Origin: a virus
DNA length: 64,000 nt
Virus record (IMG/VR): IMGVR_UViG_3300044953_000352
Location: 15,240 to 79,239 of that record
Direction: 5' to 3' (one strand)
In this document: positions 20,683-42,180 of the stretch, piece by piece
Numbering within the stretch: position 1 is the first letter of the stretch
How the letters are laid out: each line of letters starts with the position of its first letter
Translations under genes and position numbers: made by a program
Notes under the pieces: model-generated
What the model saw: only the letters and a program-made list of their open reading frames with translations
What the model was told of the DNA's origin: nothing
Database searches by the model: none

Positions 20683-20683
20683 T

Positions 20684-21362: not shown

Positions 21363-22682
21363 ATGATAGAAAATATTTTGTCAAATATTAAATCATTGAT
21401 AAATGAAAAAAATAAAAACAAAAAATGGACTCCAAATGTTGATTGGGTGCAATATGCTGGTCCATTTTTTGATGAAAATGAATATATTGCCGCAATAAAT
21501 TCTTTATTAGAAGGATGGTTAGTTTTAGGAAAAGATGCTATAAAATTTGAAACTACATTTCCATCTCAATTCAATAAAAAATACGGAATATTAACAAATA
21601 GTGGAAGTAGCTCTAATCTTATAATGATGTCTGTATTAACATCAAAAAGATTATATAATTTAAAAAAAGGAACCAAAGTTATTACTCCAATAGCTGGATT
21701 TCCTACAACTATAAATCCTATTTTTCAAGTTGGATTTACACCAGTATTTGTTGATATTGATTTAGATACCCTCAATCTTAATTTGGATCAAGTAGAGGAT
21801 GCTGCTAAAAAAGGAGCAAAAATTATTACATTTGCACATGTATTAGGAAATCCTCCTAATATGGATCGTTTAATGGAAATCATTAAACAATATAATTTGA
21901 TTCTTTTAGAAGATTGTTGTGACGCTCTTGGATCTACTTATAAAGAAAAACCTCTTGGTAGTTTTGGAGAATTAACAAGTTGTAGTTTTTATCCTGCACA
22001 TCATATGACTATGGGTGAAGGAGGATTTGTTGCATGCAATACAGAAATACAAGAAATCATTGCTCGTAGTTTTCGTGAATGGGGACGTGGATGTTATTGT
22101 GTAGGTAAAAAGGCAAATTTATTAAAAAACGGATCTTGTGGAAAAAGATTTTCAAATTGGTTGCCAGAGTTACCAGATGAAATATTTGATCATAAATACG
22201 TATATGATGAAATTGGATATAATCTCAAACCGATTGAATTACAAGCATCTATTGGACTTGAACAGATGAAGAAACTTCCTTTGATTCATCAAAAGAGAAA
22301 AGAAAATCATAAAAGATTAACTGATATATTTTATAAATATCAAGACTATTTTCATCTTCCAAAAGCAACGTTATATTCTGATCCAAGTTGGTTTGCATTT
22401 GCTTTAACTATAAAAGACAATGCGCCATTCAAGAGAAAAGATATAGTTGAATTTCTAGAATCAAATAAAATACAAACTCGTCCATATTTTGCTGGTAATA
22501 TTATGTTACAACCAGCATATACGGGATTGATTAATAAAAATGAAGTAATAACTAAATATCCAAATTCAAGAAAGGTAACAACCGACACGTTCTTTTTAGG
22601 AACAAGTCCTGTTATTACTATGGAACAATTGGATTATATACAAGAAAAAGTAGATGGGTTTTTTAAAAATAAAATTATATGA
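21363..22682 (+). CDS. rfbH: CDP-4-keto-6-deoxy-D-glucose 3-dehydrase (E1, RfbH/DdhC)
   Basis: NSGSSSNL, AHVLGNP, EDCCDA, SFYPAHHMTMGEGG (His in place of Lys), WGRGCYC...C Fe-S cysteines, DHKY...GYNLK. Confidence 0.92.
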   Translation: MIENILSNIKSLINEKNKNKKWTPNVDWVQYAGPFFDENEYIAAINSLLEGWLVLGKDAIKFETTFPSQFNKKYGILTNSGSSSNLIMMSVLTSKRLYNLKKGTKVITPIAGFPTTINPIFQVGFTPVFVDIDLDTLNLNLDQVEDAAKKGAKIITFAHVLGNPPNMDRLMEIIKQYNLILLEDCCDALGSTYKEKPLGSFGELTSCSFYPAHHMTMGEGGFVACNTEIQEIIARSFREWGRGCYCVGKKANLLKNGSCGKRFSNWLPELPDEIFDHKYVYDEIGYNLKPIELQASIGLEQMKKLPLIHQKRKENHKRLTDIFYKYQDYFHLPKATLYSDPSWFAFALTIKDNAPFKRKDIVEFLESNKIQTRPYFAGNIMLQPAYTGLINKNEVITKYPNSRKVTTDTFFLGTSPVITMEQLDYIQEKVDGFFKNKII

Positions 22683-23635
22683 AATTATTATATATTACAG
22701 GATGCTTGGGTTTTATCGGATCTCATTTGACTCGTGCGTGTCTTAAAAAAGGATGGTATGTAAGAGGAGTAGATAAGGCAACATATGCTGCGGATTTAAA
22801 TTTATTAAACGAATTTAATCAATATCCTACATTTAGTTTTAAGAGGGGAGATATTTGTAAATTAGATCGTTTAGTAGATTGTGATTATTTTATTAATGTT
22901 GCCGCCGAAACTCATGTTGATAATTCTATTAGAAAAAGTGATGACTTTGTTTATTCTAATATTAATGGCGTTTATAATATCCTAGAATTATTGAAAAATT
23001 ATAATAAACAAGGATATGTAAAGCCAGTTTTATTACATTTTAGTACAGATGAAGTGTATGGAGATATAGAAGATGGTCAGCATTTTGAAACGGATATATT
23101 GAAACCAAGTAATCCTTATTCAGCAACAAAAGCATCAGCGGATCAATTAATTCTTGCATGGGCACGAACATATGGTATACAATACGTTATTGTTAGACCA
23201 ACTAATAATTATGGAATAGGACAATATGTTGAAAAATTAATTCCAAAGACTTGTAAATATATAAGTTTAAACAGAAAAGTGCCTCTTCACAATAATGGAA
23301 CTCCAATACGTAATTGGCTTCATGTAGAAGATACTGCTAGAGGAATTATAACAATAATTGAATCGGGTGTTAAAAACGAAATATTTAACATAGCAGGTGG
23401 ATTTGAACAATCAAATATAGTAACTCTTCAGAAAATAGTAAAAGAATATTTTGGTAATTTACCTGATGATTACGAAAACAAATATATTGATTTTTCTTTA
23501 ACAAGAGTTGGTCAAGACATTCGATATGCATTAAATGATGACAAATTGAGAAGTCTAGGATGGAAGCCTCAATGTGATTTTGATGTCGAATTAAAAAAGA
23601 TAGTGAAGTATTATAAGGATAATTTTATATGGTAA
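22679..23635 (+). CDS. rfbB: dTDP-glucose 4,6-dehydratase
   Basis: TGCLGFIGS, AAETHVDNSI, STDEVYG, PYSATKA, NNYG, RNWLHVED. Confidence 0.9.
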   Translation: MKLLYITGCLGFIGSHLTRACLKKGWYVRGVDKATYAADLNLLNEFNQYPTFSFKRGDICKLDRLVDCDYFINVAAETHVDNSIRKSDDFVYSNINGVYNILELLKNYNKQGYVKPVLLHFSTDEVYGDIEDGQHFETDILKPSNPYSATKASADQLILAWARTYGIQYVIVRPTNNYGIGQYVEKLIPKTCKYISLNRKVPLHNNGTPIRNWLHVEDTARGIITIIESGVKNEIFNIAGGFEQSNIVTLQKIVKEYFGNLPDDYENKYIDFSLTRVGQDIRYALNDDKLRSLGWKPQCDFDVELKKIVKYYKDNFIW

Positions 23636-25422
23636 AATATGATAATTCAAATTATTTGGCAGCAGACTTGATAGCAGATTTTCTCGAAGAGAAAGAAATT
23701 GATATAGCATTTGGTATTATAGGATCTGCCAACTCATATATTTTTGATTCTATATCTAGAAAAGGATATACTAAATTAATATGCATGCATCATGAACAAG
23801 CAGTTGTAATGGCAGCAGGTGCATATTATAGAACTACTGGAAAATTATGTGCTGCTATTGTAACCGCTGGAGCAGGTGCTTCTAATGCAATAACAGGAGT
23901 ATTATGCAATTGGGCAGATTCTATACCTTGTATTGTAATATCAGGACAAGAATCAACTAAATATGTCAATGAGCATTCTAACCTTAGAATGTTAGGTACG
24001 CAAGGATTTGATGTATCAAAAATGGTATCTGATATTGTAAAATTTAGTACAATTATTAAGAATAAATCTGATATTTTACAATCATTAGAACAAGCATATT
24101 ATATAGCATTAGAAGGAAGACCGGGACCAGTATGGATTGATATTCCAATGGATATGCAATCTGCAATACTTAATAAAGAAGATTTAAATAAATTTACCGT
24201 TCCAAATCAAGTTGTATCTGAATATGATTTACATGAGATAATAAAGTTAATCGAACAATCAGATAGACCATTAATTTTAGGAGGACACGGAGTACGTCTT
24301 TCTAAATGTCAGGATAAATTTAAGAGCTTAATAGAAAAATTAAAAATTCCCACTGTTTTATCGTGGTCTGGAATTGATAATTTATCATTTGATAATCCAT
24401 ACAACTTTGGTTGTCCGGGTTTATATGGACAACGATGTGCTAATTTTATAATTCAAAATTGTGATTTATTAATTGTATTAGGAAGCAGACTTGCGTTACC
24501 ACAAACTGGTTATAATATAAATAATTTTGCACCAAATGCAAAAATAATAATGGTAAATAACGATGAAAATGAATTAAAAAAGCACAATAGATATGATATA
24601 AAAATCAAAGATGATTGTAAGAATTTTATAAATAAATTATTAGCTTACGACATAAATTCATATAAATCCAAGTGGTATGATCGTTGTTTGCAGTACAAAA
24701 ATGAGTTTCCTTTAGTTGAAAAATCTCATTGGGTAGACAATAAAAATCATGATAATTCTTATGTATTTATCAATGAACTATCAAAACTTCTAAAAGAAGA
24801 TCATATTATTGTTATAGGACAAGGTACACCATTACCATGTTCACATCAAAGTCTTGAACTCAAATCAAAACAAATAGCATTTGCATCAAATGGTTTAGGA
24901 GAAATGGGAAATGGATTACCATCTGCTATCGGAGCAGCATTTGGTCGTAATAATAGAGAGGTTATCTTAATGGATGGTGACGGTAGTATGATGATGAACT
25001 TGCAAGAGTTACAAACTATTGTAAGTTATAATCTTCCTGTAAAAATAATAATCTTTAATAATGAAGGTTATTTGTTTATAAAACACACACAAAAAATGTT
25101 ATTTAATGGTCGATATACTGCGGTCAATAAAGAAACCGGCATGAGTTTACCTGAATTTAAAAAAATAGCATACGCATTTGATATACCTTATTTTAATACA
25201 AAACATAATACTGTGGAAGAATTTTTAAGTCATGATGGATATGCTATATTTGAATGTTATATGAATCCAGAACAAGAATTCGCTCCAAAAGTAAAAGGTA
25301 TTTTAACAAAGAATGGTATTTTACCACCACCAATTGAGGATATGTCGCCTTTATTACCGATAGAAATTTTAGAAAAAAATATGTTGAAAGTAAATGAAAC
25401 GTCATATAAAATCAGACAATGA
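23629..25422 (+). CDS. ThDP-dependent acetolactate-synthase-like enzyme (YerE-like carboligase in a sugar cluster)
   Basis: HHEQA, GRPGPVWIDIP, GDGSMMMNLQEL...NNEGY; adjacent to rfbH and rfbB. Confidence 0.85.
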   Translation: MVKYDNSNYLAADLIADFLEEKEIDIAFGIIGSANSYIFDSISRKGYTKLICMHHEQAVVMAAGAYYRTTGKLCAAIVTAGAGASNAITGVLCNWADSIPCIVISGQESTKYVNEHSNLRMLGTQGFDVSKMVSDIVKFSTIIKNKSDILQSLEQAYYIALEGRPGPVWIDIPMDMQSAILNKEDLNKFTVPNQVVSEYDLHEIIKLIEQSDRPLILGGHGVRLSKCQDKFKSLIEKLKIPTVLSWSGIDNLSFDNPYNFGCPGLYGQRCANFIIQNCDLLIVLGSRLALPQTGYNINNFAPNAKIIMVNNDENELKKHNRYDIKIKDDCKNFINKLLAYDINSYKSKWYDRCLQYKNEFPLVEKSHWVDNKNHDNSYVFINELSKLLKEDHIIVIGQGTPLPCSHQSLELKSKQIAFASNGLGEMGNGLPSAIGAAFGRNNREVILMDGDGSMMMNLQELQTIVSYNLPVKIIIFNNEGYLFIKHTQKMLFNGRYTAVNKETGMSLPEFKKIAYAFDIPYFNTKHNTVEEFLSHDGYAIFECYMNPEQEFAPKVKGILTKNGILPPPIEDMSPLLPIEILEKNMLKVNETSYKIRQ

Positions 25423-26132
25423 ATTTAACTTTACAAACAATATCATCAACAATAATTTCCGAACTACTCGCAAATTCTCCATTAGATGGGGTGGTTTTGG
25501 ACATGGAACATGGTAATTTTAATAATGAATCTTTATACGCTTGTATTCAAGTTATTACTTTATATAAAAAACAATGTTTTGTTAGAGTCACCGATTTAAA
25601 TAAAACCTTAGTTCGAATGTGTTTAGACGCAGGAGCAACAGGAATAATATTTTCAACAATCGAATCATATTCACAAGGTAAAGAAATAGTAGAGTTTTGT
25701 ACATATCCTTTATTTAAAGGAAAAAGAGGATGTGGGCTTGTTAGAGAAAATCAATGGGGTGAATACAGTTTAGGTACAAATAAACCCCTAATAATAGGAC
25801 AAATTGAAACACAAACAGCAGTGGATAATTTAGATTCTATTTGCACATGTGGATTTGATATGTTTATTATCGGACCATATGATTTATCTAATAGTCTAAA
25901 TTGTGTAGGAGACTGGCAAAATTTACTTTATAAAATGTATATAAGTAAAATATATAACACAATTGATAATAAAAAAATTGGAATGTTTCTTCCTTCCAAA
26001 AGTAATATTACTGAATTTCTATCAAATAAAAAAAATAATATGTTCAGTCCGGCGTTAATTATATGGGGAATGGACACTGAGTTAATCAAGTCCGGTATAA
26101 ATTCCATAGCATATGATATACAAACTAACTGA
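25419..26132 (+). CDS. HpcH/HpaI-family class II pyruvate aldolase
   Basis: LDMEHG, VRV, LDAGATG, GKRG, QIET, IGPYDLS. Confidence 0.88.
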   Translation: MNLTLQTISSTIISELLANSPLDGVVLDMEHGNFNNESLYACIQVITLYKKQCFVRVTDLNKTLVRMCLDAGATGIIFSTIESYSQGKEIVEFCTYPLFKGKRGCGLVRENQWGEYSLGTNKPLIIGQIETQTAVDNLDSICTCGFDMFIIGPYDLSNSLNCVGDWQNLLYKMYISKIYNTIDNKKIGMFLPSKSNITEFLSNKKNNMFSPALIIWGMDTELIKSGINSIAYDIQTN

Positions 26133-26865
26133 AAAATTAAAGGTTTTAGCAAATAACTATGGTGTTATAGGTATAAAACAGTCATTTGAAGATGAAGGAA
26201 TCGAAATAAATGATTTAATCTTAGTAAGAAGATTAACCGATATTTGTAATATTGAATGTTTTGTAAAAATTGGTGGATGTGAAGCAAAGTCTGATATAAA
26301 TAATTGTATAAAATATGGAGTTAATAACATCATTGCTCCTATGATAGAATCGTCGTTTGCCGTATCAAAAGTTACTGATATCACATCTAAATACAATAAA
26401 CTCATAAATTCTTACATTGTTGTTGAAACCAAAACATCCTTTAATAATTTAGATAGCATTTTAGAAAAAGGATACAATACATTAAAAGGAATTGTTGTTG
26501 GTCGATCAGACTTTTCAAAATCATATTCAATCGATAAAACACAAGTTGATTCTGATTTTATATTTGATAAAGTAAAAACAATTTTACTCAAATCAAAAGA
26601 ATATAATTATCAAACGACATTAGGTGGAAATATATCTAAACAAAGTGTTGATTTTATTAAAAAAATGTATTTTCAAAATTTACTTGATAAAATCGAGACT
26701 AGAAACATTGTTATTGATTTATCAAAAATTGATATTGAAAATTTAGAAAATGTAATTAAATTAGCTATCGAATTTGAAATCGAATTAATAAAATATAAAT
26801 CTACTTCTTTAACATTGACATTAAAAGAATCAAATGATAGAATAGAAGCATTAGTAAATAGATAA
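26113..26865 (+). CDS. Aldolase/citrate-lyase-beta (HpcH-like TIM barrel) family protein
   Basis: KQSFEDEG, VKIGGCEAKSD, APMIES, VET, VGRSD. Confidence 0.7.
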   Translation: MIYKLTEKLKVLANNYGVIGIKQSFEDEGIEINDLILVRRLTDICNIECFVKIGGCEAKSDINNCIKYGVNNIIAPMIESSFAVSKVTDITSKYNKLINSYIVVETKTSFNNLDSILEKGYNTLKGIVVGRSDFSKSYSIDKTQVDSDFIFDKVKTILLKSKEYNYQTTLGGNISKQSVDFIKKMYFQNLLDKIETRNIVIDLSKIDIENLENVIKLAIEFEIELIKYKSTSLTLTLKESNDRIEALVNR

Positions 26866-26870
26866 ATAAA

Positions 26871-28031
26871 ATGAACAAGAGATTTGAACAGTTACAAAAC
26901 ATTGTACACCGAGAAGAATGTTTTAAAACAATATGTGGTGCCGGAAATGAAGATAAAGCACATGTTAAAAAATTATCTTTTGTCTATACATTAGCAGGAA
27001 CAAAAATATTAGACGTATCAGCTAATGTTGACGTTGTTAAAGCAGCAATGGAAGGTATTGATTTAGCGTATGAGTATACCCATAAATTAAATGTTAAGAT
27101 AGAAGATAGACCTTATATTATGGTCAGTGTAGGAATGCCGGGAGATCCTCACGTTAGAAAATCTTTTATAAATGCAGATAAGTGCATTGGATGTACATTA
27201 TGTATTCCTATTTGCCCAACTGATGCTATTCCTAAAGACTTTGTACAAAATCTAAATGTATTTAAAAATTTAGGAGGAGTTTTTGATATCGAAGATCAAT
27301 CAAAAGAAATTGTTATCAAAGATCTGTGTATAGGATGTGGCAAATGTAGTAGTATTTGCCCAAAGAATGATATTATCTCATATAGACACAATGCAAGAGA
27401 AATACATAAACTTTTACCGAAGTGTATGGAAGCCGGTGCAGAATTATTTGAACTTCATGCTGCGGTTGGAGAAGATGATATTACTCTTACAGAATGGTCA
27501 ATAATCAATGAGATTAATTCCAATAATTATAATTCAATGTGTTTGGATAGATTAAATCTAGGAAACTTAAGATTTGAACATAGAATTAATGAGGCTAGAA
27601 AAATTGCTGGTAATCGTTTAATGATTCAAGCAGATGGATATCCAATGAGTGGTGGAGAAGATGATTATAACACTACTTTACAAGCAGTTGCATGTGCTGA
27701 TGTTGTCAATAAAAAGTTTAATATGCGAATTGACAAGAAACGTACAACCGACAAATTAGGAAAGCCAAAAATATCTTCCAAAAAAGTATATAAAAACATT
27801 AATGATGTAGATAATATTCCTATATTAATTTCAGGAGGTACAAATTCTTATAGTAAAGAATTGGCAGAAAAGGCAGAAGTAAGAATTAATGGGGTATCTA
27901 TAGGAACATTTGCGAGAGATTTAATTGAAAAATTTATAGTGCAACCAGATTTCTATGAAAACGATGAACTTATTAAATTGGCATATGAAAATGCAAAAAA
28001 TTTAATACAAATTAGTAATAAAAAAATATGA
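26871..28031 (+). CDS. ldpA: LdpA-like 2x[4Fe-4S] protein
   Basis: FKTICGA, DPHVRK, CIGCTLCIPICP, CIGCGKCSSICP, ELH, QADGYPMSG, SGGTN match the LdpA layout. Confidence 0.75.
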   Translation: MNKRFEQLQNIVHREECFKTICGAGNEDKAHVKKLSFVYTLAGTKILDVSANVDVVKAAMEGIDLAYEYTHKLNVKIEDRPYIMVSVGMPGDPHVRKSFINADKCIGCTLCIPICPTDAIPKDFVQNLNVFKNLGGVFDIEDQSKEIVIKDLCIGCGKCSSICPKNDIISYRHNAREIHKLLPKCMEAGAELFELHAAVGEDDITLTEWSIINEINSNNYNSMCLDRLNLGNLRFEHRINEARKIAGNRLMIQADGYPMSGGEDDYNTTLQAVACADVVNKKFNMRIDKKRTTDKLGKPKISSKKVYKNINDVDNIPILISGGTNSYSKELAEKAEVRINGVSIGTFARDLIEKFIVQPDFYENDELIKLAYENAKNLIQISNKKI

Positions 28032-28408
28032 AACAACTTGTTATAGCAGTCGATTTTGATGGTACGTTGTGTGAATACGCATTTCCTAAAATAGGAAATC
28101 AAACAGAACAACAAAAAAACTTGTTAGATTTATTGATCGCACTAAAACAAAAAGGTCATTATCTAATATTATGGACAAACAGAGGGGACACAGATGAACT
28201 AAAATGTTTATCTGAAGCAATTGAATGGTGTAAAAACCAAGGATTAGAATTTGATCAAGTTAATAACAATAATCCCGAACGTGAAGCTAATAAAAAATCA
28301 GGATACAGTAGGAAAATATTAGCAGACTATTATATTGATGATAAATGCTTAGAATTTGGAAATGTATTGGCTAGAACAAAGACTTTAGAGTTTTTATCCA
28401 ATTTATGA
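28028..28408 (+). CDS. HAD-superfamily hydrolase/phosphatase
   Basis: IAVDFDGT, LILWTNR, RKILADYYIDDK. Confidence 0.85.
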   Translation: MKQLVIAVDFDGTLCEYAFPKIGNQTEQQKNLLDLLIALKQKGHYLILWTNRGDTDELKCLSEAIEWCKNQGLEFDQVNNNNPEREANKKSGYSRKILADYYIDDKCLEFGNVLARTKTLEFLSNL

Positions 28409-31099: not shown

Positions 31100-31638
31100 A
31101 ACCTACTATAGTAAATAATATAAGCAATATAAAAGATTTGACTGTATTAAAAATAGATTCTTTCTATGATTATAGAGGAGAAAACATACAATCTTATGAC
31201 TCTACAGAATATAAAGAGTTAATAAACAATATTGAATTTACTACTGATTCGTTTTCGTTTTCTACAAAAAATGTTCTTAGAGGATTTCATGGTGATACAC
31301 AATCTTGGAAATTAATTCAATGCATTAGAGGAACAGTTTATTTTGCTGTAATTGATTTGAGACCCAATTCTCCAACATACGAGAATGTATTTACATGTAC
31401 ATTAAGTGATAAAAACCGCTGGCAAGTATTAGTTCCAAATGGTTGTGTTAATGCACATCTATGCATGTCTGATGATTGTATTTTTTCTTATAAACTATCA
31501 CATGGATATATTTCAATTGATAAACAGTTACATGTATTTTGGGATGATAGTAAATTTTTTCTTAAAATTAAATGGCCAATACAATTATCTCCAATTGTAT
31601 CTCACCGAGACAACTCATTTCAGTTCAGTGTAATATAA
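31096..31638 (+). CDS. rmlC: dTDP-4-dehydrorhamnose 3,5-epimerase family
   Basis: DYRG, NVLRGFH, KLIQCIRG, DLRPNSPTY, VPNGCVNAH. Confidence 0.88.
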   Translation: MKPTIVNNISNIKDLTVLKIDSFYDYRGENIQSYDSTEYKELINNIEFTTDSFSFSTKNVLRGFHGDTQSWKLIQCIRGTVYFAVIDLRPNSPTYENVFTCTLSDKNRWQVLVPNGCVNAHLCMSDDCIFSYKLSHGYISIDKQLHVFWDDSKFFLKIKWPIQLSPIVSHRDNSFQFSVI

Positions 31639-33079: not shown

Positions 33080-33080
33080 T

Positions 33081-34043: not shown

Positions 34044-34053
34044 ATAAACTTAT

Positions 34054-35592
34054 ATGGATGTATTATTTATAAATCCCGGAAACGCACGAGTAATTTATCA
34101 AAACTTAGAAAAAGATTATTCTGCTATTGAACCTCCTACTTGGGCACTTTTATTAGCCGAATCTTGTCGATCCATAGGAAAAACTGTTAGTATTTTAGAT
34201 ATAAACGCTGAAAGACTCTCTGTCGAACAATCATATGAAAGAATTGTAAATATAAATCCTAAATTAATATGTTTTGTTGTATATGGACAAAATGTTAATG
34301 CTGGTACTACAAATATGAGTGGTGCAGTTGAGTTATCCAAGTATATAAAATTGCATAATAAAAATATACCAATCGCGTTTATAGGATCATATGTACAAGC
34401 TCTTCCTAAGAAGACATTGTTTGATGAAAAATCAATAGATATTGTATTTACTAACGAAGGTGTTTATGCATTAAGAAATTTACTTTCTCAAGACAAAATT
34501 GACTTAAATAACTTAGACCATATTAAAGGTATTGGATGGAGAAAAAATGGGTTTCCTACTTTAAATCCTCCAGAATTTGTAGTGCCGCAAGATAGATTAG
34601 ACACCGATTTACCGGGATATGCATGGGACTTATTACCATATAAAGAAACACCATTGGATTTATATCGTTCTCCAATGTGGCATGCTGAATATGATCCTAA
34701 AAAACGTACTCCATATGCTGCTATACAGACTTCATTAGGATGTAAATTCGGCTGTGATTTTTGTATGATAAACATACTAAATAGAAATGATAATGAAGAA
34801 ATCGGAGTAGCATCAAATTACAGTTTAATGAGATATTGGTCTCCTGAATTCATTATAAGAGAATTTGATAAATTAGTAAAAATGGAAGTTGAAACTATTC
34901 GTATTATCGATGAATTGTTTTTACTTAACAAAAAACATTATGTTCCATTGTGTGAAATGCTAAAAGAAAGAGGTTATGGTAAATTCTTAAGAATGTGGGC
35001 ATATTCACGTATTGATACTGTATGTAATCCAGAACTTCTTAAGTTAGTAAGAGAAGCGGGTATTAAATGGTTGTGTTTAGGAATAGAAAGTGGAGACAGA
35101 AACATACGTTTAGAAGTCTCAAAAGGCAAGTTTCAAGATGTTGATATTAAAAAGATAGTAGAGCAAATTCATGCGAATGATATTGAGATAATGGGAAATT
35201 ATATATTTGGGTTGCCGGGAGATAGTATTGATAGTATGCAAACAACTCTAAATCTATCAAAAGAATTATGTACATCTGGATGGAATGCATATACAGCAAT
35301 GGCATTGCCGGGAAGCAAATTGTATAAAGATGCTATAGACAAAGGACTCAATATTCCCAAAAAATATGAAGAGTTTTCATTTCATTCATATGAAACACTT
35401 CCATTGCCTACAGAACATTTAACTCCTGCTGAAATTGTAAAATTTAGAGATAATGCATTTGATGAATATCATTCAAATTCTTTATTTCTGGAAAGAATAG
35501 AAAAAAGATTTGGAGAAGTAGCGGTAAACTCTATAAGAAAAATGTTAAAATTTAAATTAAAACGCAAGATTGTTGAGGAATCAAATAAATAA
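34054..35592 (+). CDS. Cobalamin-binding radical SAM enzyme (class B methyltransferase-like)
   Basis: N-terminal B12-binding domain (EPPTW...LA), CKFGCDFC (CxxxCxxC), GIESG, FGLPGD, LPGS. Confidence 0.92.
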   Translation: MDVLFINPGNARVIYQNLEKDYSAIEPPTWALLLAESCRSIGKTVSILDINAERLSVEQSYERIVNINPKLICFVVYGQNVNAGTTNMSGAVELSKYIKLHNKNIPIAFIGSYVQALPKKTLFDEKSIDIVFTNEGVYALRNLLSQDKIDLNNLDHIKGIGWRKNGFPTLNPPEFVVPQDRLDTDLPGYAWDLLPYKETPLDLYRSPMWHAEYDPKKRTPYAAIQTSLGCKFGCDFCMINILNRNDNEEIGVASNYSLMRYWSPEFIIREFDKLVKMEVETIRIIDELFLLNKKHYVPLCEMLKERGYGKFLRMWAYSRIDTVCNPELLKLVREAGIKWLCLGIESGDRNIRLEVSKGKFQDVDIKKIVEQIHANDIEIMGNYIFGLPGDSIDSMQTTLNLSKELCTSGWNAYTAMALPGSKLYKDAIDKGLNIPKKYEEFSFHSYETLPLPTEHLTPAEIVKFRDNAFDEYHSNSLFLERIEKRFGEVAVNSIRKMLKFKLKRKIVEESNK

Positions 35593-35598
35593 TTTTCT

Positions 35599-36204
35599 AT
35601 GAAAGAATATACATCAGAAGAATTAATCGCATTTGAAGAAGATATTGCGAATGAATTCAATTCATCAAAAATAAAAGCACCTATTCATTTATATAATGGA
35701 AATGAACAACAAATGATAAATGTGTTTAAAAATATTCAAGATAATAATTGGATATTTTGTACATGGAGATCACATTATCAATGTTTATTAAAAGGTGTTC
35801 CTAAAGAACTTGTAAAACAAGATATATTAAATGGTAAATCTATTACTTTATGTTATCCTGAATACAACATCTATTCGTCTGCGATTGTAGCAGGTAGTAT
35901 TCCTATTGCAACAGGTATGGCATTAGATATAAAACGTAAAAATTTATCAAATAGAGTTTGGTGTTTTGTGGGTGATATGGCATCAGAAACTGGTACATTC
36001 TTTGAAAATTGGAAATATTCAGTAAATCATGATCTTCCTATAACATACGTTATAGAAAACAATGGTAAGTCAGTGTGTACTGATACACTAAAAACGTGGA
36101 ACTGTAATAATTTATATTTTGCAAATGAAACACGTAATATAATATATTACGAATATCAAACTAAGTATCCACATGCGGGAGCAGGAAAAAGAATTCAATT
36201 TTAA
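35599..36204 (+). CDS. ThDP-dependent dehydrogenase E1 alpha-like subunit
   Basis: PIHL, WRSHY, GDMASETG...ENN. Confidence 0.85.
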   Translation: MKEYTSEELIAFEEDIANEFNSSKIKAPIHLYNGNEQQMINVFKNIQDNNWIFCTWRSHYQCLLKGVPKELVKQDILNGKSITLCYPEYNIYSSAIVAGSIPIATGMALDIKRKNLSNRVWCFVGDMASETGTFFENWKYSVNHDLPITYVIENNGKSVCTDTLKTWNCNNLYFANETRNIIYYEYQTKYPHAGAGKRIQF

Positions 36205-36206
36205 TT

Positions 36207-36743
36207 ATGAAATACTTTGACGAACTTAAAAAATCGATGGATTGGTTGGCAGGAAAAGACGATACCTTATTTTTAGGTCAAGCAGTAGAATATGCAGGAA
36301 CTGCTATGACAAATACATTAAAAGATGTAGATAAAAAGAAGTTGTTAGAAATGCCAGTTAATGAAGACATGCAAATGGGAATTTCTATTGGAATGGCTCT
36401 AAACAAAAGTGTTCCGATTTCTATTTTTCCAAGATGGAACTTTTTACTTCTTGCCGCAAATCAAATTGTAAATCATTTGGACAAAGCGAAAATAATGTCA
36501 TCTGGAGGATATAAACCAACGGTTATCATTAGAACATCTATAGGTTCACAACGCCCACTACATCCACAACATCAACATATATCAGATTTTACATCTGCTT
36601 TCAGAGCAATGTGTGATACAGTTGATATAATTCGTCTTGATGAACCACATCAAATTTTTGAATCATTTCAATATGCATATGAAAGAAATGATGGAAGATC
36701 AACCATTTTAGTTGAATGGGGAGATTATTATAGTGAAAAATAA
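36207..36743 (+). CDS. E1 beta/transketolase pyrimidine-binding subunit (short, no C-terminal domain)
   Basis: FLGQ, EMPVNE...GMAL, NQIVN, QH. Confidence 0.85.
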   Translation: MKYFDELKKSMDWLAGKDDTLFLGQAVEYAGTAMTNTLKDVDKKKLLEMPVNEDMQMGISIGMALNKSVPISIFPRWNFLLLAANQIVNHLDKAKIMSSGGYKPTVIIRTSIGSQRPLHPQHQHISDFTSAFRAMCDTVDIIRLDEPHQIFESFQYAYERNDGRSTILVEWGDYYSEK

Positions 36744-36745
36744 GT

Positions 36746-37708
36746 ATGACAATTGTAAAATCACCATTTCGAATATCCTTGTTTGGAGGAAGTACTGATT
36801 ATAAAAAATTTTATCAGCAACATGGTTCTTTTTTAATAGGTACGACTATTAATAAATATTGTTATTTATCTATGAGATATCGTCCGTCGATACTCTCAAA
36901 ACAATATTTGTGTACATATTCAAAGTATGAGTTGGTAAACAATGTCAACGAAATTCAAAATCCACTAATAAGAGAAACTTTTAATTATTTTAATATAAAT
37001 AAACCAGTTGAGTTTTTTTCTTTTTCTGATATACCGGCTCGTACTGGTTTAGGAGGATCTTCTTCATATTGTATAGGAATGGCATATTTGATTTGTAAAT
37101 TAAATAATCTATCTTTATCAAACAAAGAAATTATTAAAACAGCTATTCACATTGAACGAAATATATTAAAAGAAAGTGGAGGTATACAAGATCAAATTTG
37201 GCCATTTGCAAAAGGTCTAAATAGCATTGAAATTCAAAAAGATGGTGAATTTTATACAAAACCTTTACCTGTTACAGAAGAATTTACAAATGAATTTGAA
37301 AAATCATTCACTTTAATATACACAGACGAACAAAGAACAACGGACAATATTGCTAAGTCACATGAAAGTGATATTGAAAATAAATTACAGATTTTAAAAT
37401 TTGCAAAAGATGCATATAATTTATTTTTAAAAGAAGATATAAAGGGTATAGGAAATTTAGTTTATGAAAGTTGGTTATATAAAGATAGAATATCTCCTTT
37501 GATATCTAATTCAAAAATTAATAATATAATTAATGATGTAATGCAAATGGGTGCATATGGTACAAAGTTATTAGGAAGTGGAGGATGTGGATTTGTATTG
37601 GTAATATCTGATCCTATAATAAAAAATAAAATAGAACAGAAATATAACGGATATGTATTGAACGTTAATTTTGAAAAAACAGGTACGTCTGACATATTTA
37701 AAAGCTAA
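36746..37708 (+). CDS. hddA: GHMP sugar kinase, D-glycero-D-manno-heptose-7-phosphate kinase-like
   Basis: PFRISLFGGSTD, DIPARTGLGGSSS, GIQDQ, KLLGSGGCGF. Confidence 0.85.
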   Translation: MTIVKSPFRISLFGGSTDYKKFYQQHGSFLIGTTINKYCYLSMRYRPSILSKQYLCTYSKYELVNNVNEIQNPLIRETFNYFNINKPVEFFSFSDIPARTGLGGSSSYCIGMAYLICKLNNLSLSNKEIIKTAIHIERNILKESGGIQDQIWPFAKGLNSIEIQKDGEFYTKPLPVTEEFTNEFEKSFTLIYTDEQRTTDNIAKSHESDIENKLQILKFAKDAYNLFLKEDIKGIGNLVYESWLYKDRISPLISNSKINNIINDVMQMGAYGTKLLGSGGCGFVLVISDPIIKNKIEQKYNGYVLNVNFEKTGTSDIFKS

Positions 37709-37710
37709 GT

Positions 37711-38133
37711 ATGAAAATTGGAATTGTATCAGGTTATTTTAATCCACTACATGCAGGTCACGTTGAATACATCAACGCTGCAAAAAAAGAATGTGATAAA
37801 TTGATCGTTATTATCAATAGCGACTATCAAAGAAAATTAAAAGGAAGTAAAGAATTTATGGACGAATCTCATAGATCTTTTATTGTAAATAATTTAAAAT
37901 CTGTTGATGAAACTTTTATATCTATAGATCAAGATAAAACACAATGTAGTACATTAAGATATTTTAGAGATTTGTATCCAAATGAAGAATTAAAGTTCAT
38001 GAATAGTGGAGATAGAAAAGGTGAAAATTTAGTCACCGCTGAAAGTAATGTTTGCAAAGAATTAAAAATACTTGAAATTATTCTAGATTTGCCTAAAATA
38101 TACTCATCGAGTAAATTATTGAAAAAACTATAA
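37711..38133 (+). CDS. Cytidylyltransferase-like nucleotidyltransferase (HxGH)
   Basis: SGYFNPLHAGH, GDR, SSS. Confidence 0.88.
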   Translation: MKIGIVSGYFNPLHAGHVEYINAAKKECDKLIVIINSDYQRKLKGSKEFMDESHRSFIVNNLKSVDETFISIDQDKTQCSTLRYFRDLYPNEELKFMNSGDRKGENLVTAESNVCKELKILEIILDLPKIYSSSKLLKKL

Positions 38134-38138
38134 ATAAT

Positions 38139-39314
38139 ATGAATCACTTTTATTTACCTCTAATGGAGGACAACATCGATAAAGAAGACATTAAAAATTT
38201 AATAAATTTTCTTTCAAGTCCAAATATACCAAAATTAACAAATGGTCCTAAAGTTGTTGAATTTGAAAATGCATGGGGCAATTGGTTAGGAACAAAATAT
38301 AACTTGATGGTCAATAGCGGAGCGTCTGCTAATGAATTAACTATTCTTGCATTAAATGAAATGTATGAAGATGGAGATATTATAATACCTCCGTTGACAT
38401 GGATTTCAGATGTATCTTCTGTTATTTTTAGTAAATTTAATCCAGTATTTTGTGATATAAATTTAAAAAATTTATCGTTTGATTTGAACCGTCTTAAAAA
38501 ATTAATCACACCAAAAACACGAGCAATTTTTCTAACCCATGTATTAGGTATTAATGGATTGACAGATGAACTACTTGATCTTTGTAAACGAAATAACATT
38601 CACTTGATAGAAGATGTATGTGAATCACACGGAACAACTTTCAAAGGTAAAAAGGTAGGATCATATGGATTTGTAAGTAATTTTAGTTTTTATTTTGCCC
38701 ACCATATGTCTACAATTGAAGGTGGTATGATTTGTACTGATGATGAAAGATTTTATCAAATTTGTAGAGCATTGAGATCGCATGGAATGATTAGAGAAAT
38801 GACTAATGAATCCATGAAAAATGAAATCATTAATCAACATCCTGATCTTAATAAAGATTTTATATTTTTGCGTCCGTCTCATAATTTTAGAAGTACAGAA
38901 ATCAATGCAGTGATTGGTCTTTCTCAATTACCAAAATTAGATAGTAATAATAAAAAGAGAATTGATAATTACAATTACTTCATGAGTAAATTAGATTCTT
39001 CAAAGTATATTACAGATCTAAATTTAGAGGGACAGTGCAATTATGCGTTTACCGTTATTTTGAAAGAACCTTCGATGGTTACTAGACTAAATATAGAATT
39101 ACGCTTAAAAGAAGCAAAAATTGAATTTAGAAGAGGAATGTCAGGTGGTGGAAACCAACTTCGTCAACCATATATCAAAAAATACTTTAAGATTGATTAT
39201 AATGAATTTCCAAACGTAGAACATGTACACGATTTTAGTTGGTATATAGGAAATTATCCTAGCTTACAATTTGAGAAAATTGATACTCTAATTAACGTAT
39301 TAAATAAAATATAA
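38139..39314 (+). CDS. DegT/DnrJ-family PLP enzyme with active-site His (ColD-like 3-dehydratase)
   Basis: NSGASAN, EDVCESHG, SFYFAHHMSTIEGG; lacks the RfbH Fe-S cysteine insert. Confidence 0.8.
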   Translation: MNHFYLPLMEDNIDKEDIKNLINFLSSPNIPKLTNGPKVVEFENAWGNWLGTKYNLMVNSGASANELTILALNEMYEDGDIIIPPLTWISDVSSVIFSKFNPVFCDINLKNLSFDLNRLKKLITPKTRAIFLTHVLGINGLTDELLDLCKRNNIHLIEDVCESHGTTFKGKKVGSYGFVSNFSFYFAHHMSTIEGGMICTDDERFYQICRALRSHGMIREMTNESMKNEIINQHPDLNKDFIFLRPSHNFRSTEINAVIGLSQLPKLDSNNKKRIDNYNYFMSKLDSSKYITDLNLEGQCNYAFTVILKEPSMVTRLNIELRLKEAKIEFRRGMSGGGNQLRQPYIKKYFKIDYNEFPNVEHVHDFSWYIGNYPSLQFEKIDTLINVLNKI

Positions 39315-39316
39315 TT

Positions 39317-40984
39317 ATGGCTAAAAAAATAGTACCTTCTTTAGGAGAAGTAGAATTAACACAAGATTTCTCAAGTGATGCATTTGAATTTCTTCATCAG
39401 AACTTTAAAAAACTAATACCAAAAAATACTGTGGTATTAGATATTGGAGCGCATATAGGAATATTTTCTGTTATTTTTGGTTCTTGTGCAAGTAAAGTTA
39501 TATCATTTGAACCGAATCCTAATATTTTCAATAAATTATCAGAGAACGCATCAAAAAATAAACAATTAAATATTATTCCATATCCATATGCATGTACGTC
39601 TGAAAATAAAAAATACACATTTAATTACAGTGATTATAATGTATACAAAGATGGTACAAATGGTGGATTTTTAAGTAATTTACAAAGAACAGACTTTTTA
39701 CAAATACATCCTTCTCAAGTAGAAGTTGATGGTGTTAATTTAGTTGATTTTTTAACTAATAATCATAAATCAGACATCGATAATATTAAATTTATAAAAA
39801 TTGATACTGAAGGATATGATAAAGAAGTGATAAAAACTCTTTATCCTATTATTAATAAAAATAGACCTCTTTTAATGACAGAAGCCTTTAAATATTTAAC
39901 CGAAGCTGAATTAGAAGACTATTATAATACTATTAATAATTTAAATTATTCTATATATGATATTTCTCCATTAGACAATATTAATGATTGTGCTGGACCA
40001 TTAGATACAAATGAATTTAAATATTTTACTGTAAAAATATGTGATAATGGAAATTTTTTGTGCGTTCCAAATGAAAAAGTTAAACAATATAACTTGCCCG
40101 AAATAGTTCGTAATAAAACTGCGGTTGTAGTATTTGGAAGAAACGATGGATATAAAGAACCTGAACGTTTCTATGTTCATATAAAAACAATGTTAGATAC
40201 ATTCGATGAAGTTATTTACGTTGATTGGAATTCAGACAAACAAAGTTTCTTATATGAAATAAAAGACAAACTTCCAAAAACTAATAGACTAAAACATATT
40301 GTTATTCCTCCCACCGCAGCTAATCAATTAGTCAATTTTGATTCTAAAGCTCAGGTATGTAATTCAGTGTTGTCATTTAATATTGGTATTCGTAGAATTG
40401 ACGCAGAATACATAGTACTAGCAACAACTGATATTATACCTCCTTCAAAAGAAACTCTACAACAGTTCATAAACAAAACTAATAAATACTCATTTTATAC
40501 ACTTAGTAGAAGAGATATAGAATATAAAGACGTTATTGACAATATTAATAACTTAGAAGCGTATAGAAAACATTTGGATTTAACTGTTCCTCCACGTTAT
40601 TTTCCGGCTAAAGTAACTCCTAATGATAATTATAGTCTATTTAATTGTTGCGGAGATTTTCAATTTGCAACAAAAAATATATGGCTAAAAATTAGAGGAT
40701 ATGAAGAAGAAATGTTATATGCATGTTTTTGTGATACAAATGTACAAAAAAAGGCAGTTCTATATGGATTTCAATTAGTACCTGTTTATGATGTTCCTTT
40801 ATATCACATGAGTCATACAGGCATGGCTAACGATGGAACATCTCCTAGTAAACAGTACTATAATGATGCTATGAAGTGGGTTGAATATTTTGATAAATAT
40901 CAATTACACGGTCATATTATGTATTCTAGAAATAATGAAACTTGGGGATTTTCAGACATAGAAATTGAGCATGAAATTATATGA
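39317..40984 (+). CDS. FkbM-family methyltransferase fused to a GT-A-like domain
   Basis: LDIGAHIG, FEPNP, IKIDTEG; C-half GRNDGY, VDWNS, NIGIRR, GDFQ, GYEE. Confidence 0.8.
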   Translation: MAKKIVPSLGEVELTQDFSSDAFEFLHQNFKKLIPKNTVVLDIGAHIGIFSVIFGSCASKVISFEPNPNIFNKLSENASKNKQLNIIPYPYACTSENKKYTFNYSDYNVYKDGTNGGFLSNLQRTDFLQIHPSQVEVDGVNLVDFLTNNHKSDIDNIKFIKIDTEGYDKEVIKTLYPIINKNRPLLMTEAFKYLTEAELEDYYNTINNLNYSIYDISPLDNINDCAGPLDTNEFKYFTVKICDNGNFLCVPNEKVKQYNLPEIVRNKTAVVVFGRNDGYKEPERFYVHIKTMLDTFDEVIYVDWNSDKQSFLYEIKDKLPKTNRLKHIVIPPTAANQLVNFDSKAQVCNSVLSFNIGIRRIDAEYIVLATTDIIPPSKETLQQFINKTNKYSFYTLSRRDIEYKDVIDNINNLEAYRKHLDLTVPPRYFPAKVTPNDNYSLFNCCGDFQFATKNIWLKIRGYEEEMLYACFCDTNVQKKAVLYGFQLVPVYDVPLYHMSHTGMANDGTSPSKQYYNDAMKWVEYFDKYQLHGHIMYSRNNETWGFSDIEIEHEII

Positions 40985-42180
40985 AAAATGTTATTATTGT
41001 TGGTGGAGGAATAGTAGGATTAGCTACTGCATATAAACTATCATGTAAATATAATGATATACAAATTATTGTACTTGAAAAAGAAAATGAGGTAGGTTTG
41101 CACCAAACTACTCATAACAGTGGTGTATTACACTGTGGTTTATATTATAAACCCGGTTCACTAAAAGCAAAATTAGCTGTTGACGGTATTAAGCAAATGA
41201 CATCGTTTTGCAAACAATATAATATTCCACATGAAATATGCGGAAAATTAGTTGTAGCAACAAATGAAATAGAACATTCAAGACTTAAAGATTTGTATAA
41301 AAGAGGCATTGAAAATGGTTTAGAAGGATTAAAATATTTAGATAATAAAGAAGAAATACAAAAAATAGAACCATATGTAACAAATGCAATTGCCGCTATA
41401 CATGTTCCACAAGAAGGAATAGTAGACTATAAAGCAGTAATAAATAAATTAAAATTATTAATTTTAAAAAAAGGACATTTAATTCTTTGTAATAGTAAAG
41501 TTAATTATATATGCAATAAAACCAATACCGTTTCTGTTAAATCTCCACTACAAGAAGAAACTTATGCATATGATTATTTGATAAATTGCACAGGGTTATA
41601 TAGTGATGTCATTTCCAAATTAACAACTACAGTTTCATCAAAAATAGTTCCTTTTCGAGGAGAATATTATAAACTTAAAAAAGAATCTGAACACCTCGTT
41701 AATAATTTAATATATCCTGTTCCAGATCCATCTTTTCCATTTTTAGGTGTTCATTTTACAAGATTAATACATGGAGGAATAGAAGCAGGGCCAAATGCTG
41801 TATTAGCGTTTTCTAGAGAAGGATATAAACTTTATAATATAAACTTACTTGAAATGCTTGATTATTTGTGTTTTCGAGGATTTTGGAAATTTATATGGAA
41901 ACATAAATCTATGTGTTGGAAAGAATTCTGGCAATCTTTAAGCAAAAAACGTCTTTGTAAATCGTTACAAAAATTGATACCTTCAATAACAGAAAATGAT
42001 TTGATGCCGGGAGGATCTGGAGTCAGAGCACAAGCTATGAGTATAGATGGTAATTTAATTCAAGATTTTGAAATTCATATTGTAAATAACAATATATGTA
42101 ACGTTTTAAACGCTCCTAGTCCCGCTGCAACTGCATCACTATCTATCGCAGATATTATATTAAATAAGATAAATTTATGA
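40981..42180 (+). CDS. lhgO: L-2-hydroxyglutarate oxidase
   Basis: GGGIVGLA, HQTTHNSGVLH, YYKPGSLKA, PFRGEYY, FPFLGVHFT, GVRAQA, NAPSPAAT. Confidence 0.93.
   Translation: MKNVIIVGGGIVGLATAYKLSCKYNDIQIIVLEKENEVGLHQTTHNSGVLHCGLYYKPGSLKAKLAVDGIKQMTSFCKQYNIPHEICGKLVVATNEIEHSRLKDLYKRGIENGLEGLKYLDNKEEIQKIEPYVTNAIAAIHVPQEGIVDYKAVINKLKLLILKKGHLILCNSKVNYICNKTNTVSVKSPLQEETYAYDYLINCTGLYSDVISKLTTTVSSKIVPFRGEYYKLKKESEHLVNNLIYPVPDPSFPFLGVHFTRLIHGGIEAGPNAVLAFSREGYKLYNINLLEMLDYLCFRGFWKFIWKHKSMCWKEFWQSLSKKRLCKSLQKLIPSITENDLMPGGSGVRAQAMSIDGNLIQDFEIHIVNNNICNVLNAPSPAATASLSIADIILNKINL

Follow-up and report, generated by a model that had tools for sequence, protein, structure and literature searches.

The 64,000-nt stretch analyzed here (the window; positions 15,240 to 79,239 of IMG/VR virus record IMGVR_UViG_3300044953_000352) comes from a very large, uncultured freshwater phage and makes up the 3' end of a linear contig of 79.2 kb with a G+C content of about 28% and an estimated CheckV completeness of about 20%. 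All genes between positions 17107 and 42793 (~25 kb) lie on the plus strand with gaps of -20 to +31 nt, the single exception being a 496-nt stretch that corresponds to a broken nucleosidase gene. The block at the heart of this run (21363-42180) contains 20 intact open reading frames (ORFs) and the broken gene, with gaps of -20 to +10 nt; gaps of up to 31 nt occur only among the upstream glycosyltransferase (GT) genes. Searches against Pfam, NCBIfam and PDB sequences, in which "equivalog" denotes an NCBIfam model with its own cut-off, recovered in place every enzyme that a preliminary description of this DNA had named, and added to that list an LdpA-like protein, three glycosyltransferase-like ORFs and the frameshifted nucleosidase gene (Table 1). 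The block is probably a phage glycan operon, in which two nucleotide-sugar cassettes and their glycosyltransferases would make and attach two branched sugars.

Table 1. Features of the glycan operon (positions in the window). NDP, nucleoside diphosphate; PLP, pyridoxal phosphate; PMP, pyridoxamine phosphate; ThDP, thiamine diphosphate; SDR, short-chain dehydrogenase/reductase; SAM, S-adenosylmethionine; MTA/SAH, methylthioadenosine/S-adenosylhomocysteine; ALS, acetolactate synthase; TM, template-modeling score; aa, amino acids
Feature	Position	Strand	Matches
Operon head: 181-aa ORF, GT4, dUTPase-like ORF, 436-aa ORF, GT2	17107..21358	+	Pfam, NCBIfam
GT4 glycosyltransferase	17665-18687	+	
dUTPase-like ORF, 218 aa	18719-19375	+	dUTPase match limited to residues 81-183
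436-aa ORF	19372-20682	+	Faint GT1 match
GT2	20684-21358	+	
RfbH/DdhC-type (E1) PMP/[2Fe-2S] NDP-4-keto-6-deoxyhexose 3-dehydratase	21363..22682	+	NCBIfam equivalog, 472.8 bits (> 423)
RmlB-like NDP-glucose 4,6-dehydratase	22679..23635	+	TIGR01181, 304.6 bits (cut-off 365), far above CDP- and GDP-type models
YerE/ErwE-like ThDP sugar C-branching carboligase (ALS-fold), predicted	23629..25422	+	Three TPP domains, GDG..NN motif
HpcH1, class II pyruvate aldolase, nearest YfaU and HpaI	25419..26132	+	PDB 2VWS, E 8e-19
HpcH2, divergent HpcH-fold (pyruvate-aldolase-like) protein	26113..26865	+	Pfam, 27.2 bits
LdpA-like TIM barrel, inserted segment with two 4Fe-4S motifs	26871..28031	+	NCBIfam LdpA, 141 bits (cut-off 450); Fer4 domains
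Small HAD phosphatase, BT0820 family	28028..28408	+	NCBIfam NF046079, 95.7 bits (cut-off 165)
SDR1, candidate side-chain ketoreductase in the YerF/ErwF position	28405..29310	+	Pfam Epimerase
Two ORFs, 306 and 291 aa	29307..31099	+	291 aa: weak GT10 match; 306 aa: virus-only Atlas clusters, one 30% GT2
RmlC-like cupin, NDP-4-keto-sugar 3- and/or 5-epimerase	31096..31638	+	Pfam, 128 bits
MTA/SAH-type nucleosidase gene, broken	31639..32134	+	Three-frame reading; three 1-nt deletions
SDR2, Cj1427-like NDP-heptose C4-dehydrogenase, predicted	32135..33079	+	PDB 6VO6, 318 bits, E 4e-94
Divergent candidate glycosyltransferase, GT-A (GT2-like) fold	33081..34043	+	Atlas structural matches to GT2 clusters, TM 0.62-0.67
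Probable class B (B12-binding) radical SAM enzyme, candidate C-methyltransferase	34054..35592	+	Pfam Radical_SAM, 55.7 bits (cut-off 29.5)
Minimal E1 alpha-like (201 aa) and E1 beta-like (178 aa) ThDP pair	35599..36743	+	E1_dh, Transket_pyr domains
HddA-like GHMP sugar kinase and HxGH (cytidylyltransferase-fold) nucleotidyltransferase	36746..38133	+	
ColD-type PLP/PMP 3-dehydratase	38139..39314	+	PDB 2GMS, E 7.5e-53
FkbM-family methyltransferase	39317..40984	+	Pfam, TIGR01444; domain at residues 42-211 of 555 aa
L-2-hydroxyglutarate oxidase (LhgO)	40981..42180	+	NCBIfam equivalog, 489.8 bits (> 299), residues 3-394
Two small ORFs, 109 and 96 aa, at operon end	42177..42793	+	Syntenic in relatives

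The block is flanked on both sides by T4-like replication genes: a family B DNA polymerase (PolB) and an AAA+ clamp-loader subunit on the 5' side, and the clamp-loader A subunit, UvdE, ribonucleotide reductase, a DnaB-like helicase and a 5'-3' exonuclease on the 3' side. The window PolB shares 45% identity with its counterpart in Microcystis phage Mel-JY01, the nearest cultured relative by this protein, on which we found no literature, and about 31% with the polymerases of T4-like cyanophages and pelagiphages. The whole block, from the PD-(D/E)XK nuclease gene to the last small ORF, is present in a 295.8-kb relative (G001) that CheckV rates as 100% complete, where it likewise sits between PolB and the clamp loader. 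Amino acid identities between the two blocks are 31-88% (60-88% for all but three genes), and gene order is conserved except for RmlC, which is sited beside ColD in G001. A 12.9-kb contig from an independent study covers positions 26830-39787 at 98.5% identity, other contigs cross the right-hand junction of the block, and near-identical DNA occurs in lake, river and mine-tailings sequencing runs of several studies. Because T4-like genes stand on both sides, the block is syntenic in the complete G001 and an independent contig bridges it, the block is genuine phage DNA. The preliminary description had considered a chimeric host insert, which the G001 synteny and the bridging contig rule out.

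The window proteins were mapped on viral loci, 28 of which were reached through the ALS-like enzyme, 80 through the E1 beta-like protein and nine through the LdpA-like protein. Cassette A (21363-29310) has the order RfbH-RmlB-ThDP-HpcH1-HpcH2-LdpA-HAD-SDR1, which was found whole or mostly so in seven viral loci, two of them without RfbH within the DNA present. Cassette B (31096-42180) has the core SDR2-(B12 radical SAM)-E1 alpha-E1 beta-ColD-RmlC. Among its 80 viral loci, E1 beta was present in all, E1 alpha in 79, SDR2 in 68, ColD in 65, the radical SAM gene in 56 and RmlC in 47, and the kinase and nucleotidyltransferase genes traveled together (23 and 21 loci). Cassette B occurs in many contigs without A, and A also occurs without B. 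Because the two units move independently among viral loci, the block consists of two separable cassettes and not of one pathway. The preliminary description of a tightly packed plus-strand run was right about the co-directional layout and its narrow gaps, and its single pathway has to be given up. That all the enzymes form one linear route to a single sugar would suit the one co-directional, overlapping operon and its only 4,6-dehydratase. However, the cassettes occur apart, glycosyltransferase-like genes lie between the two halves, and each half has its own kind of 3-dehydratase and of ThDP branching enzyme. The mini-E1 pair can moreover replace the YerE-like cassette, and we regard a single linear pathway as quite improbable.

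This replacement was seen in three loci (L136:5-4141, L114:312-3349 and L115:551-3588), where the ThDP-HpcH1-HpcH2-LdpA-HAD segment is exchanged exactly for a second mini-E1 pair between RmlB and SDR1. The two pairs share about 50% identity, RmlB and SDR1 remain unchanged on either side, and RfbH is retained in L136. These swaps support the roles assigned to the cassettes, and since they occur in close relatives they provide natural comparisons for assigning function.

The first enzyme of cassette A, RfbH, matched PDB 3BCX with an E value of 5e-100. Its AHH motif aligned with His220 of the 3-dehydratase E1, where His replaces the PLP lysine of the DegT fold, and the H220K variant (3BB8) differs at precisely that column. 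The four [2Fe-2S] cysteines also aligned with those of this enzyme, as a CC at the Cys193 position, a C-x-C and a fourth Cys, with a five-residue insertion before the last. The RmlB-like protein keeps the TDE and YxxxK motifs (FSTDEVYG and YSATK). Neither the window's contig nor the complete G001 yielded an RmlA/DdhA-type nucleotidyltransferase (PF00483); therefore, NDP-glucose would have to come from the host.

The ThDP enzyme encoded after RmlB fell below the cut-off of all ALS equivalogs (best 351.5 bits against 738), and its neighbors are RmlB and an aldolase, with no adjoining ALS small-subunit gene. A tree of 97 sequences included three genuine ALS enzymes (an IlvB beside ilvD, an IlvG beside ilvM and an IlvB beside ilvN). 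The tree set IlvB/IlvG apart from the carboligase group with 100 SH-aLRT support and placed the window enzyme in a 12-member viral clade sister to bacterial enzymes. Because its equivalog scores are far under the cut-offs and it is split from IlvB/IlvG in this way, the enzyme is predicted not to be an acetolactate synthase. We examined 80 bacterial enzymes, the best matches to the viral ones in species genomes (one of them archaeal). Of these, 54 are encoded within 10 kb of an rfbH homologue, 15 adjoin an HpcH-like gene and 39 have an SDR1-like gene near the ThDP gene. The sequences nearest to the viral-bacterial group include one from a Mycobacterium sp. locus (L050) with the arrangement ThDP-aldolase-RfbH-RmlB. 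More than 120 metagenome clusters of the YerE-like protein were found at 53% identity or higher, all automatically named acetolactate synthase, and 50,697 deposited phage records gave only ALS-level matches of about 30%, mostly in records resembling host DNA. A grouping of the ALS-like protein with IlvB, which would have contradicted the preliminary description, was not seen, and the tree places the enzyme with RfbH-linked relatives.

In the clusters for erwiniose, caryophyllose and 'gastriose', longer branches are made by a pyruvate aldolase together with a YerE-like ThDP enzyme and a reductase (Steitz et al., PMC9306805). In these systems, ErwE rejects pyruvate and accepts 4-hydroxy-2-oxo acids, and the neighbor of the carboligase MMAR_2332, MMAR_2331, is a member of the aldolase/citrate-lyase (HpcH) family (PMC9306805). 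Because two aldolases adjoin the window's ThDP enzyme, and by analogy with the published aldolase/ErwE scheme, an aldolase-made 4-hydroxy-2-oxo acid is a more likely donor than pyruvate. YerE-like branching, as first suggested for this DNA, is consistent with the position of the enzyme among RfbH-linked relatives, whereas the pyruvate donor suggested along with it now appears less likely.

HpcH1 keeps the catalytic His, Arg, Glu and Asp of YfaU (2-keto-3-deoxy-L-rhamnonate aldolase). A sequence search of the PDB with HpcH2 gave only a chance-level match to pyruvate kinase, and its structural model (pLDDT 94.6) has HpaI, GarL and HpcH as best fold matches (E 3e-10). The third protein falls below the equivalog cut-off for LdpA, a cyanobacterial clock protein, and we call it LdpA-like only. 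Its model shows a barrel with a disordered or poorly modeled Fe-S insert, the best fold matches being class II fructose-bisphosphate and tagatose-bisphosphate aldolases (E 5e-5, TM 0.4-0.6) and not reductases. The HAD gene follows the LdpA-like gene in all nine viral loci, HpcH2 precedes it in eight of them, and RfbH is present without an LdpA-like gene in many loci. The linkage to HpcH2 and HAD, the swap that keeps RfbH and the aldolase-like fold weakly favor a role for the LdpA-like protein in side-chain donor synthesis over one as electron donor to RfbH. Its substrate would perhaps be a phosphorylated precursor that HAD later dephosphorylates.

In cassette B, SDR2 shares 52% identity and the common NTNSxYG motif with PDB 6VO6, and the next solved match scored 84 bits. 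We take 6VO6 to be Cj1427, as the hddA-adjoining position of the gene suggests. Among Campylobacteraceae, 19 of 325 genomes carry a gene 48-54% identical to SDR2, and no relative was found in 78 genomes of one Campylobacter genus split. One Campylobacteraceae genome has the order HddC (415 bits, cut-off 300), GmhA, HddA (687 bits, cut-off 600), SDR2 homologue, 4,6-dehydratase, Fcl-like reductase and RmlC-like epimerase, in which the SDR2 homologue between hddA and the 4,6-dehydratase is about 98% identical to 6VO6. These similarities identify SDR2, at the level of sequence, as a Cj1427-type C4-dehydrogenase. The RmlC-like cupin had the GDP-heptose 3- and 3,5-epimerases of C. jejuni as its best PDB matches (E 4e-25), slightly ahead of RmlC. 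The ColD-type enzyme has His at the position of ColD His188, as aligned to 2GMS and the H188 variants, and no Fe-S cysteine cluster. The alignments to 3BCX and 2GMS thus bear out the preliminary description of one 3-dehydratase with Fe-S cysteines and one without. Cj1427 together with the HS:5 PLP C3-dehydratase (ColD-type) yields GDP-D-glycero-4-keto-3-deoxy-heptose (PMC10680097), and a dehydratase, a ColD-type dehydratase, a C5 epimerase and a reductase give 3,6-dideoxyheptoses (PMC10440746).

The last enzyme of cassette B, LhgO, lies behind the kinase/ColD cassette in 8 of 12 viral loci, namely the eight with upstream DNA present, and is limited to this jumbo-phage lineage. The 12 loci came from an alignment-based search, and a single-protein scan gave one. 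The tightly bound NADH of Cj1427 is reoxidized by 2-oxoglutarate, which is converted to L-2-hydroxyglutarate in a ping-pong mechanism (PMC10680097). Because SDR2 appears to be of the Cj1427 type and this conversion has been published, LhgO probably returns L-2-hydroxyglutarate to the 2-oxoglutarate that such enzymes use.

In the mini-E1 pair, the GD..NN motif and the catalytic Glu are conserved, and only its pyrophosphate-binding (PP) and pyrimidine-binding (Pyr) cores align (E 1e-5 to 1e-8). For comparison, full-length pyruvate dehydrogenase (PDH) E1 has an alpha subunit of about 330-400 aa and a beta subunit of about 325 aa with a C-terminal domain. Because only the ThDP-binding cores are present, the pair, as judged from its sequence, cannot be a normal PDH E1, the alternative that the preliminary description had wished to see excluded. 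Among the block ORFs scanned, to which the search for E2 and E3 families was confined, none matched either. The E1-like pairs AviB1/AviB2 and Pau11/12 have been proposed to add an acetyl branch at C4 (PMC4753412). The E1 beta-like protein has 7,735 metagenome clusters, automatically named pyruvate/2-oxoglutarate dehydrogenase E1. In deposited phages, relatives of 32-37% identity were found only in S-SM2, P-TIM68 and two 735-kb phages, and 401 sampled Cyanobacteriota genomes gave one weak match, lending no support to a cyanobacterial source and giving no host assignment. A phosphonate pathway was considered and rejected, there being no phosphoenolpyruvate mutase and the E1 pair having the PP-then-Pyr domain order.

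Public automatic annotation would place both ThDP enzymes in auxiliary central metabolism, as the ALS of branched-chain amino acid synthesis and as PDH E1. This is at odds with the low ALS equivalog scores, the fully supported tree split (100 SH-aLRT) and the lack of an adjoining ALS small subunit, and with E1 subunits of 201 and 178 aa from which the rest of E1 is absent. Both enzymes are also embedded among sugar dehydratases in dozens of loci, and we give a role in central metabolism almost no credence.

The radical SAM protein has a CxxxCxxC motif at residue 230 (CKFGCDFC), and its N-terminal B12-binding match scored 31.9 bits, marginally below the cut-off of 32.1. In some related loci, an SDR gene stands in place of the radical SAM gene, and this alternation suggests that the branch is tailored either by reduction or by methylation. 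The broken nucleosidase gene upstream is restored to a 167-aa frame in sister strains from other runs by an additional A at 31733 and additional T residues at 31982 and 32019, and G001 has an intact ORF of 168 aa. An MTA/SAH-type nucleosidase would remove radical SAM by-products. In the FkbM-family protein, the C-terminal ~340 aa match no family. The kinase had HddA as its best model, with a full-length alignment at 133 bits against a cut-off of 600 and 58 bits for the next model, and it is therefore named HddA-like only; the HxGH nucleotidyltransferase matched the RfaE domain II model with 56 bits. GmhA and HddC were not found in the complete G001, nor was GmhA found in the window's contig. 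Given the weak HddA-like score and the lack of HddC and GmhA, the proposal of a heptose start therefore rests mainly on SDR2 and the epimerase. From the sequences, cassette B likely starts from a heptose.

Cassette B might instead act on a hexose, for instance GDP-4-keto-6-deoxymannose or the product of RmlB, in which case a branched 3,6-dideoxyhexose resembling colitose or yersiniose would result. Among solved structures, the closest to the cassette B 3-dehydratase is that of E. coli ColD, a hexose enzyme, and RmlB is the sole 4,6-dehydratase of the block. The kinase scores far under the HddA cut-off, the kinase and transferase are missing from about three quarters of cassette B loci, and neither GmhA nor HddC is encoded in the complete G001. 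Against a hexose, SDR2 has 52% identity and the NTNSxYG motif in common with Cj1427, which is specific for heptoses, and the next solved match lies at 84 bits. LhgO suits the by-product of Cj1427, the top matches of the epimerase are heptose epimerases, and HddA is the best model of the kinase by 133 bits to 58. We consider the hexose route unlikely and prefer a heptose substrate.

The products of the operon are most likely two rare C-branched deoxy sugars, one with six and one with seven carbons. Cassette A would start from host NDP-glucose, which RmlB would convert to a 4-keto-6-deoxy sugar. RfbH would then remove the 3-OH, the ALS-fold ThDP enzyme would put an acyl-anion unit on C4 and SDR1 would reduce the ketone of the side chain. 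The donor would be a 4-hydroxy-2-oxo acid made by the HpcH aldolases with the aid of the LdpA-like protein and HAD, and the product a long-branched 3,6-dideoxyhexose of the erwiniose/caryophyllose kind. The substrate of cassette B would be an NDP-heptose, for whose activation the HddA-like kinase and the HxGH nucleotidyltransferase may be responsible. SDR2 would oxidize C4 while converting 2-oxoglutarate to L-2-hydroxyglutarate, and LhgO would turn the latter back to 2-oxoglutarate. The ColD-type enzyme would remove the 3-OH and the mini-E1 pair would add a two-carbon branch at C4, with C-methylation by the B12 radical SAM enzyme, epimerization by RmlC and O-methylation by the FkbM protein as further steps. 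The lack of a C4 reductase in cassette B would be explained by the C4 addition itself, because adding a two-carbon unit there yields a tertiary alcohol.

Genes for about a dozen soluble glycosyltransferases surround the block. The operon-head gene set is syntenic in G001 and about ten other viral contigs, and the 306-aa and 291-aa ORFs, which are syntenic with the cassettes, are probably glycosyltransferases as well. The ORF at 33081..34043 may be a GT-A (GT2-like) glycosyltransferase, for which the modeled fold provides a lead only. The 181-aa ORF that opens the operon has a faint match to a GT4 N-domain, and the 340-aa ORF that follows 12 nt on has a GT1 match over its first half only (17107-18687, plus strand); together they may form a split GT-B glycosyltransferase. 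The 218-aa dUTPase-like ORF is kept among the glycosyltransferase genes in relatives, at 47-59% identity. The 109-aa and 96-aa ORFs at the operon end had no significant Pfam or NCBIfam match, the former giving a sub-threshold hit to DUF1360 (E 0.007). A second glycan set lies on the minus strand (202-8828), with GT4, Anp1/GT62-like, GT32 (DXD), GT25 and 684-aa GT4 genes and two Methyltransf_24 sugar O-methyltransferase-like genes. Counting this set, about half of the window is given to glycans.

Neither the Bac_transf (initiating phosphoglycosyltransferase), WecA-type and Wzx families nor a thymidylate-synthase-like (dCMP/dUMP hydroxymethylase) gene was found in the window's contig or G001. 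Because no lipid-carrier or export genes are encoded, the acceptor is probably cytoplasmic, our best guess being, most simply, phage proteins; use of the host export machinery is possible. In bacteria, relatives of both cassettes are located in loci for surface polysaccharides (PMC9306805, PMC10680097), which would suit sugars that remodel the host surface (lipopolysaccharide, capsule or exopolysaccharide), for example in superinfection exclusion, rather than decorate the phage. The missing initiating phosphoglycosyltransferase, WecA-type enzyme and Wzx flippase, together with the soluble glycosyltransferases around the block, argue against this, and we hold host-surface remodeling to be a lesser, though real, possibility. 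Attachment of the sugars to phage DNA as a base hypermodification could be suspected from the position of the block inside the replication module and from the dUTPase-like gene among the glycosyltransferases. However, the contig and G001 lack the thymidylate-synthase-like gene, and nothing else ties the block to nucleotide modification, which makes such a role very improbable.

Several observations weigh against the two-cassette reading of the operon that we favor. The kinase reaches only 133 of the 600 bits required of HddA, the nucleotidyltransferase falls outside the HddC family and no GmhA is encoded; moreover, the kinase, nucleotidyltransferase and LhgO genes occur in a quarter or fewer of the cassette B loci. 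No E3 (DdhD/AscD)-type reductase (PF00175) that could serve as the electron donor of RfbH was found in the window's contig or the complete G001, and the LdpA-like protein could be this donor instead of acting on the side chain. The tree contains L050 as a stand-in for YerE, ErwE and MMAR_2332 and bacterial sequences picked for their similarity to the viral enzymes, which puts orthology to characterized enzymes beyond its reach. For HpcH2, the LdpA-like protein, HAD and the radical SAM enzyme, the proposed roles are guesses based on where the genes lie and how the proteins fold. Observed were family membership, key residues, synteny and the behavior of the cassettes, and from these we infer the substrates, order of steps, products, nucleotide carriers and acceptor. 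A more specific proposal is that the operon makes two chemically new sugars for the phage's own particle. One would be a 3,6-dideoxyhexose with a long C4 chain made with the aid of an LdpA-related Fe-S barrel, and the other a 3-deoxy-heptose with a C4 acyl branch from the mini-E1 pair and C-methylation by the radical SAM enzyme. We put this forward tentatively, as a somewhat doubtful extension.

Two further elements lie upstream of the operon. A 26-nt near-perfect AT-rich palindrome at 16835-16860 (CGTATATATG...CATATATACG), between the PD-(D/E)XK nuclease gene and the operon start, could be a terminator or operator. Between PolB and the nuclease gene, a 249-aa ORF (14927-15676, minus strand) matches the FecR domain, whose family is not usual in the replication module of a phage. 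A promoter and terminator scan of 15000-34999 found fewer promoter-like sites than in shuffled sequence, and the sequencing runs listed for the stretch include no RNA run.

If the proposed functions are right, then in thousands of aquatic metagenome contigs the genes that bear the automatic names 'acetolactate synthase' and 'pyruvate dehydrogenase E1' are glycan genes rather than auxiliary genes of central metabolism. Large phages would then spend tens of kilobases on rare branched sugars of their own, which bears on virion glycosylation, host recognition and defense evasion. Should the sugars coat the particle, this would be a viral glycan system akin to those of giant viruses, built with bacterial-type chemistry. 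The locus also opens up enzymology: a minimal ThDP heterodimer that would branch sugars, a B12 radical SAM enzyme that would act on a sugar, an LdpA-like Fe-S barrel in side-chain synthesis and a 2-oxoglutarate loop between LhgO and the Cj1427-type enzyme.

The core of the preliminary description, namely that the phage itself encodes the synthesis of branched, 3-deoxy and higher-carbon nucleotide sugars and has several enzymes that form C-C bonds, agrees with the gene content, family placement and synteny. Its "undescribed system" was overstated, because both halves follow published bacterial enzyme logic; several of the enzymes and the products are undescribed. We found no publication that describes cassette A or B in a virus, nor any specific work on jumbo-phage nucleotide sugars. 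Among cultured viruses, the T4-like cyanophage S-SM2 (GU071095) has a large nucleotide-sugar ('LPS') cluster, with no demonstrated function for its genes, that includes a distant mini-E1 relative of 32% identity. There (L252:8302-9510) a single 402-aa protein, annotated 'transketolase central region-containing protein', comprises both halves in fused form, and kinases, nucleotidyltransferases and phosphoheptose isomerases are encoded nearby. S-SM2 was not among the phage-collection matches to the YerE-like or RfbH proteins; that search did not include the Cj1427-like and B12 radical SAM proteins, and the 18.5 kb examined has no gene annotated as either.

Cassette A resembles the 'unifying scheme' for acyl-branched sugars (PMC9306805), exemplified by yersiniose (YerE/YerF), erwiniose (ErwE/ErwF/ErwI/ErwJ) and caryophyllose (MMAR_2331/MMAR_2332), in combining a 4,6-dehydratase, RfbH, a ThDP carboligase, an aldolase and an SDR. 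Unlike those clusters, it is phage-encoded, has two HpcH-fold proteins instead of one and carries the additional LdpA-like and HAD genes. Furthermore, the phage lacks an E3/DdhD reductase and a glucose-1-phosphate nucleotidyltransferase, and its dehydratase is RmlB-like and not CDP-type. The mini-E1 pair of cassette B is analogous to AviB1/AviB2 (avilamycin) and Pau11/Pau12 (paulomycin), where a two-subunit E1-type ThDP enzyme is likewise found in a deoxysugar cluster by the 4-keto step (PMC4753412). The phage subunits differ in being cut to the ThDP-binding cores, and their substrate is probably a heptose. The rest of cassette B resembles the modification of capsular heptose in C. jejuni, which uses GmhA/HddA/GmhB/HddC, Cj1427, the HS:5 PLP C3-dehydratase, C3/C5 epimerases and C4 reductases (PMC10680097, PMC10440746). 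The likeness lies in SDR2 (52% identical to Cj1427), the ColD-type 3-dehydratase, the heptose-type cupin epimerase and the HddA-like kinase. In contrast to C. jejuni, the phage lacks GmhA and HddC, with an HxGH-fold transferase in place of both, and has no C4 reductase, whereas it carries the mini-E1 pair and B12 radical SAM enzyme that the Campylobacter pathways do not have and encodes LhgO alongside them.

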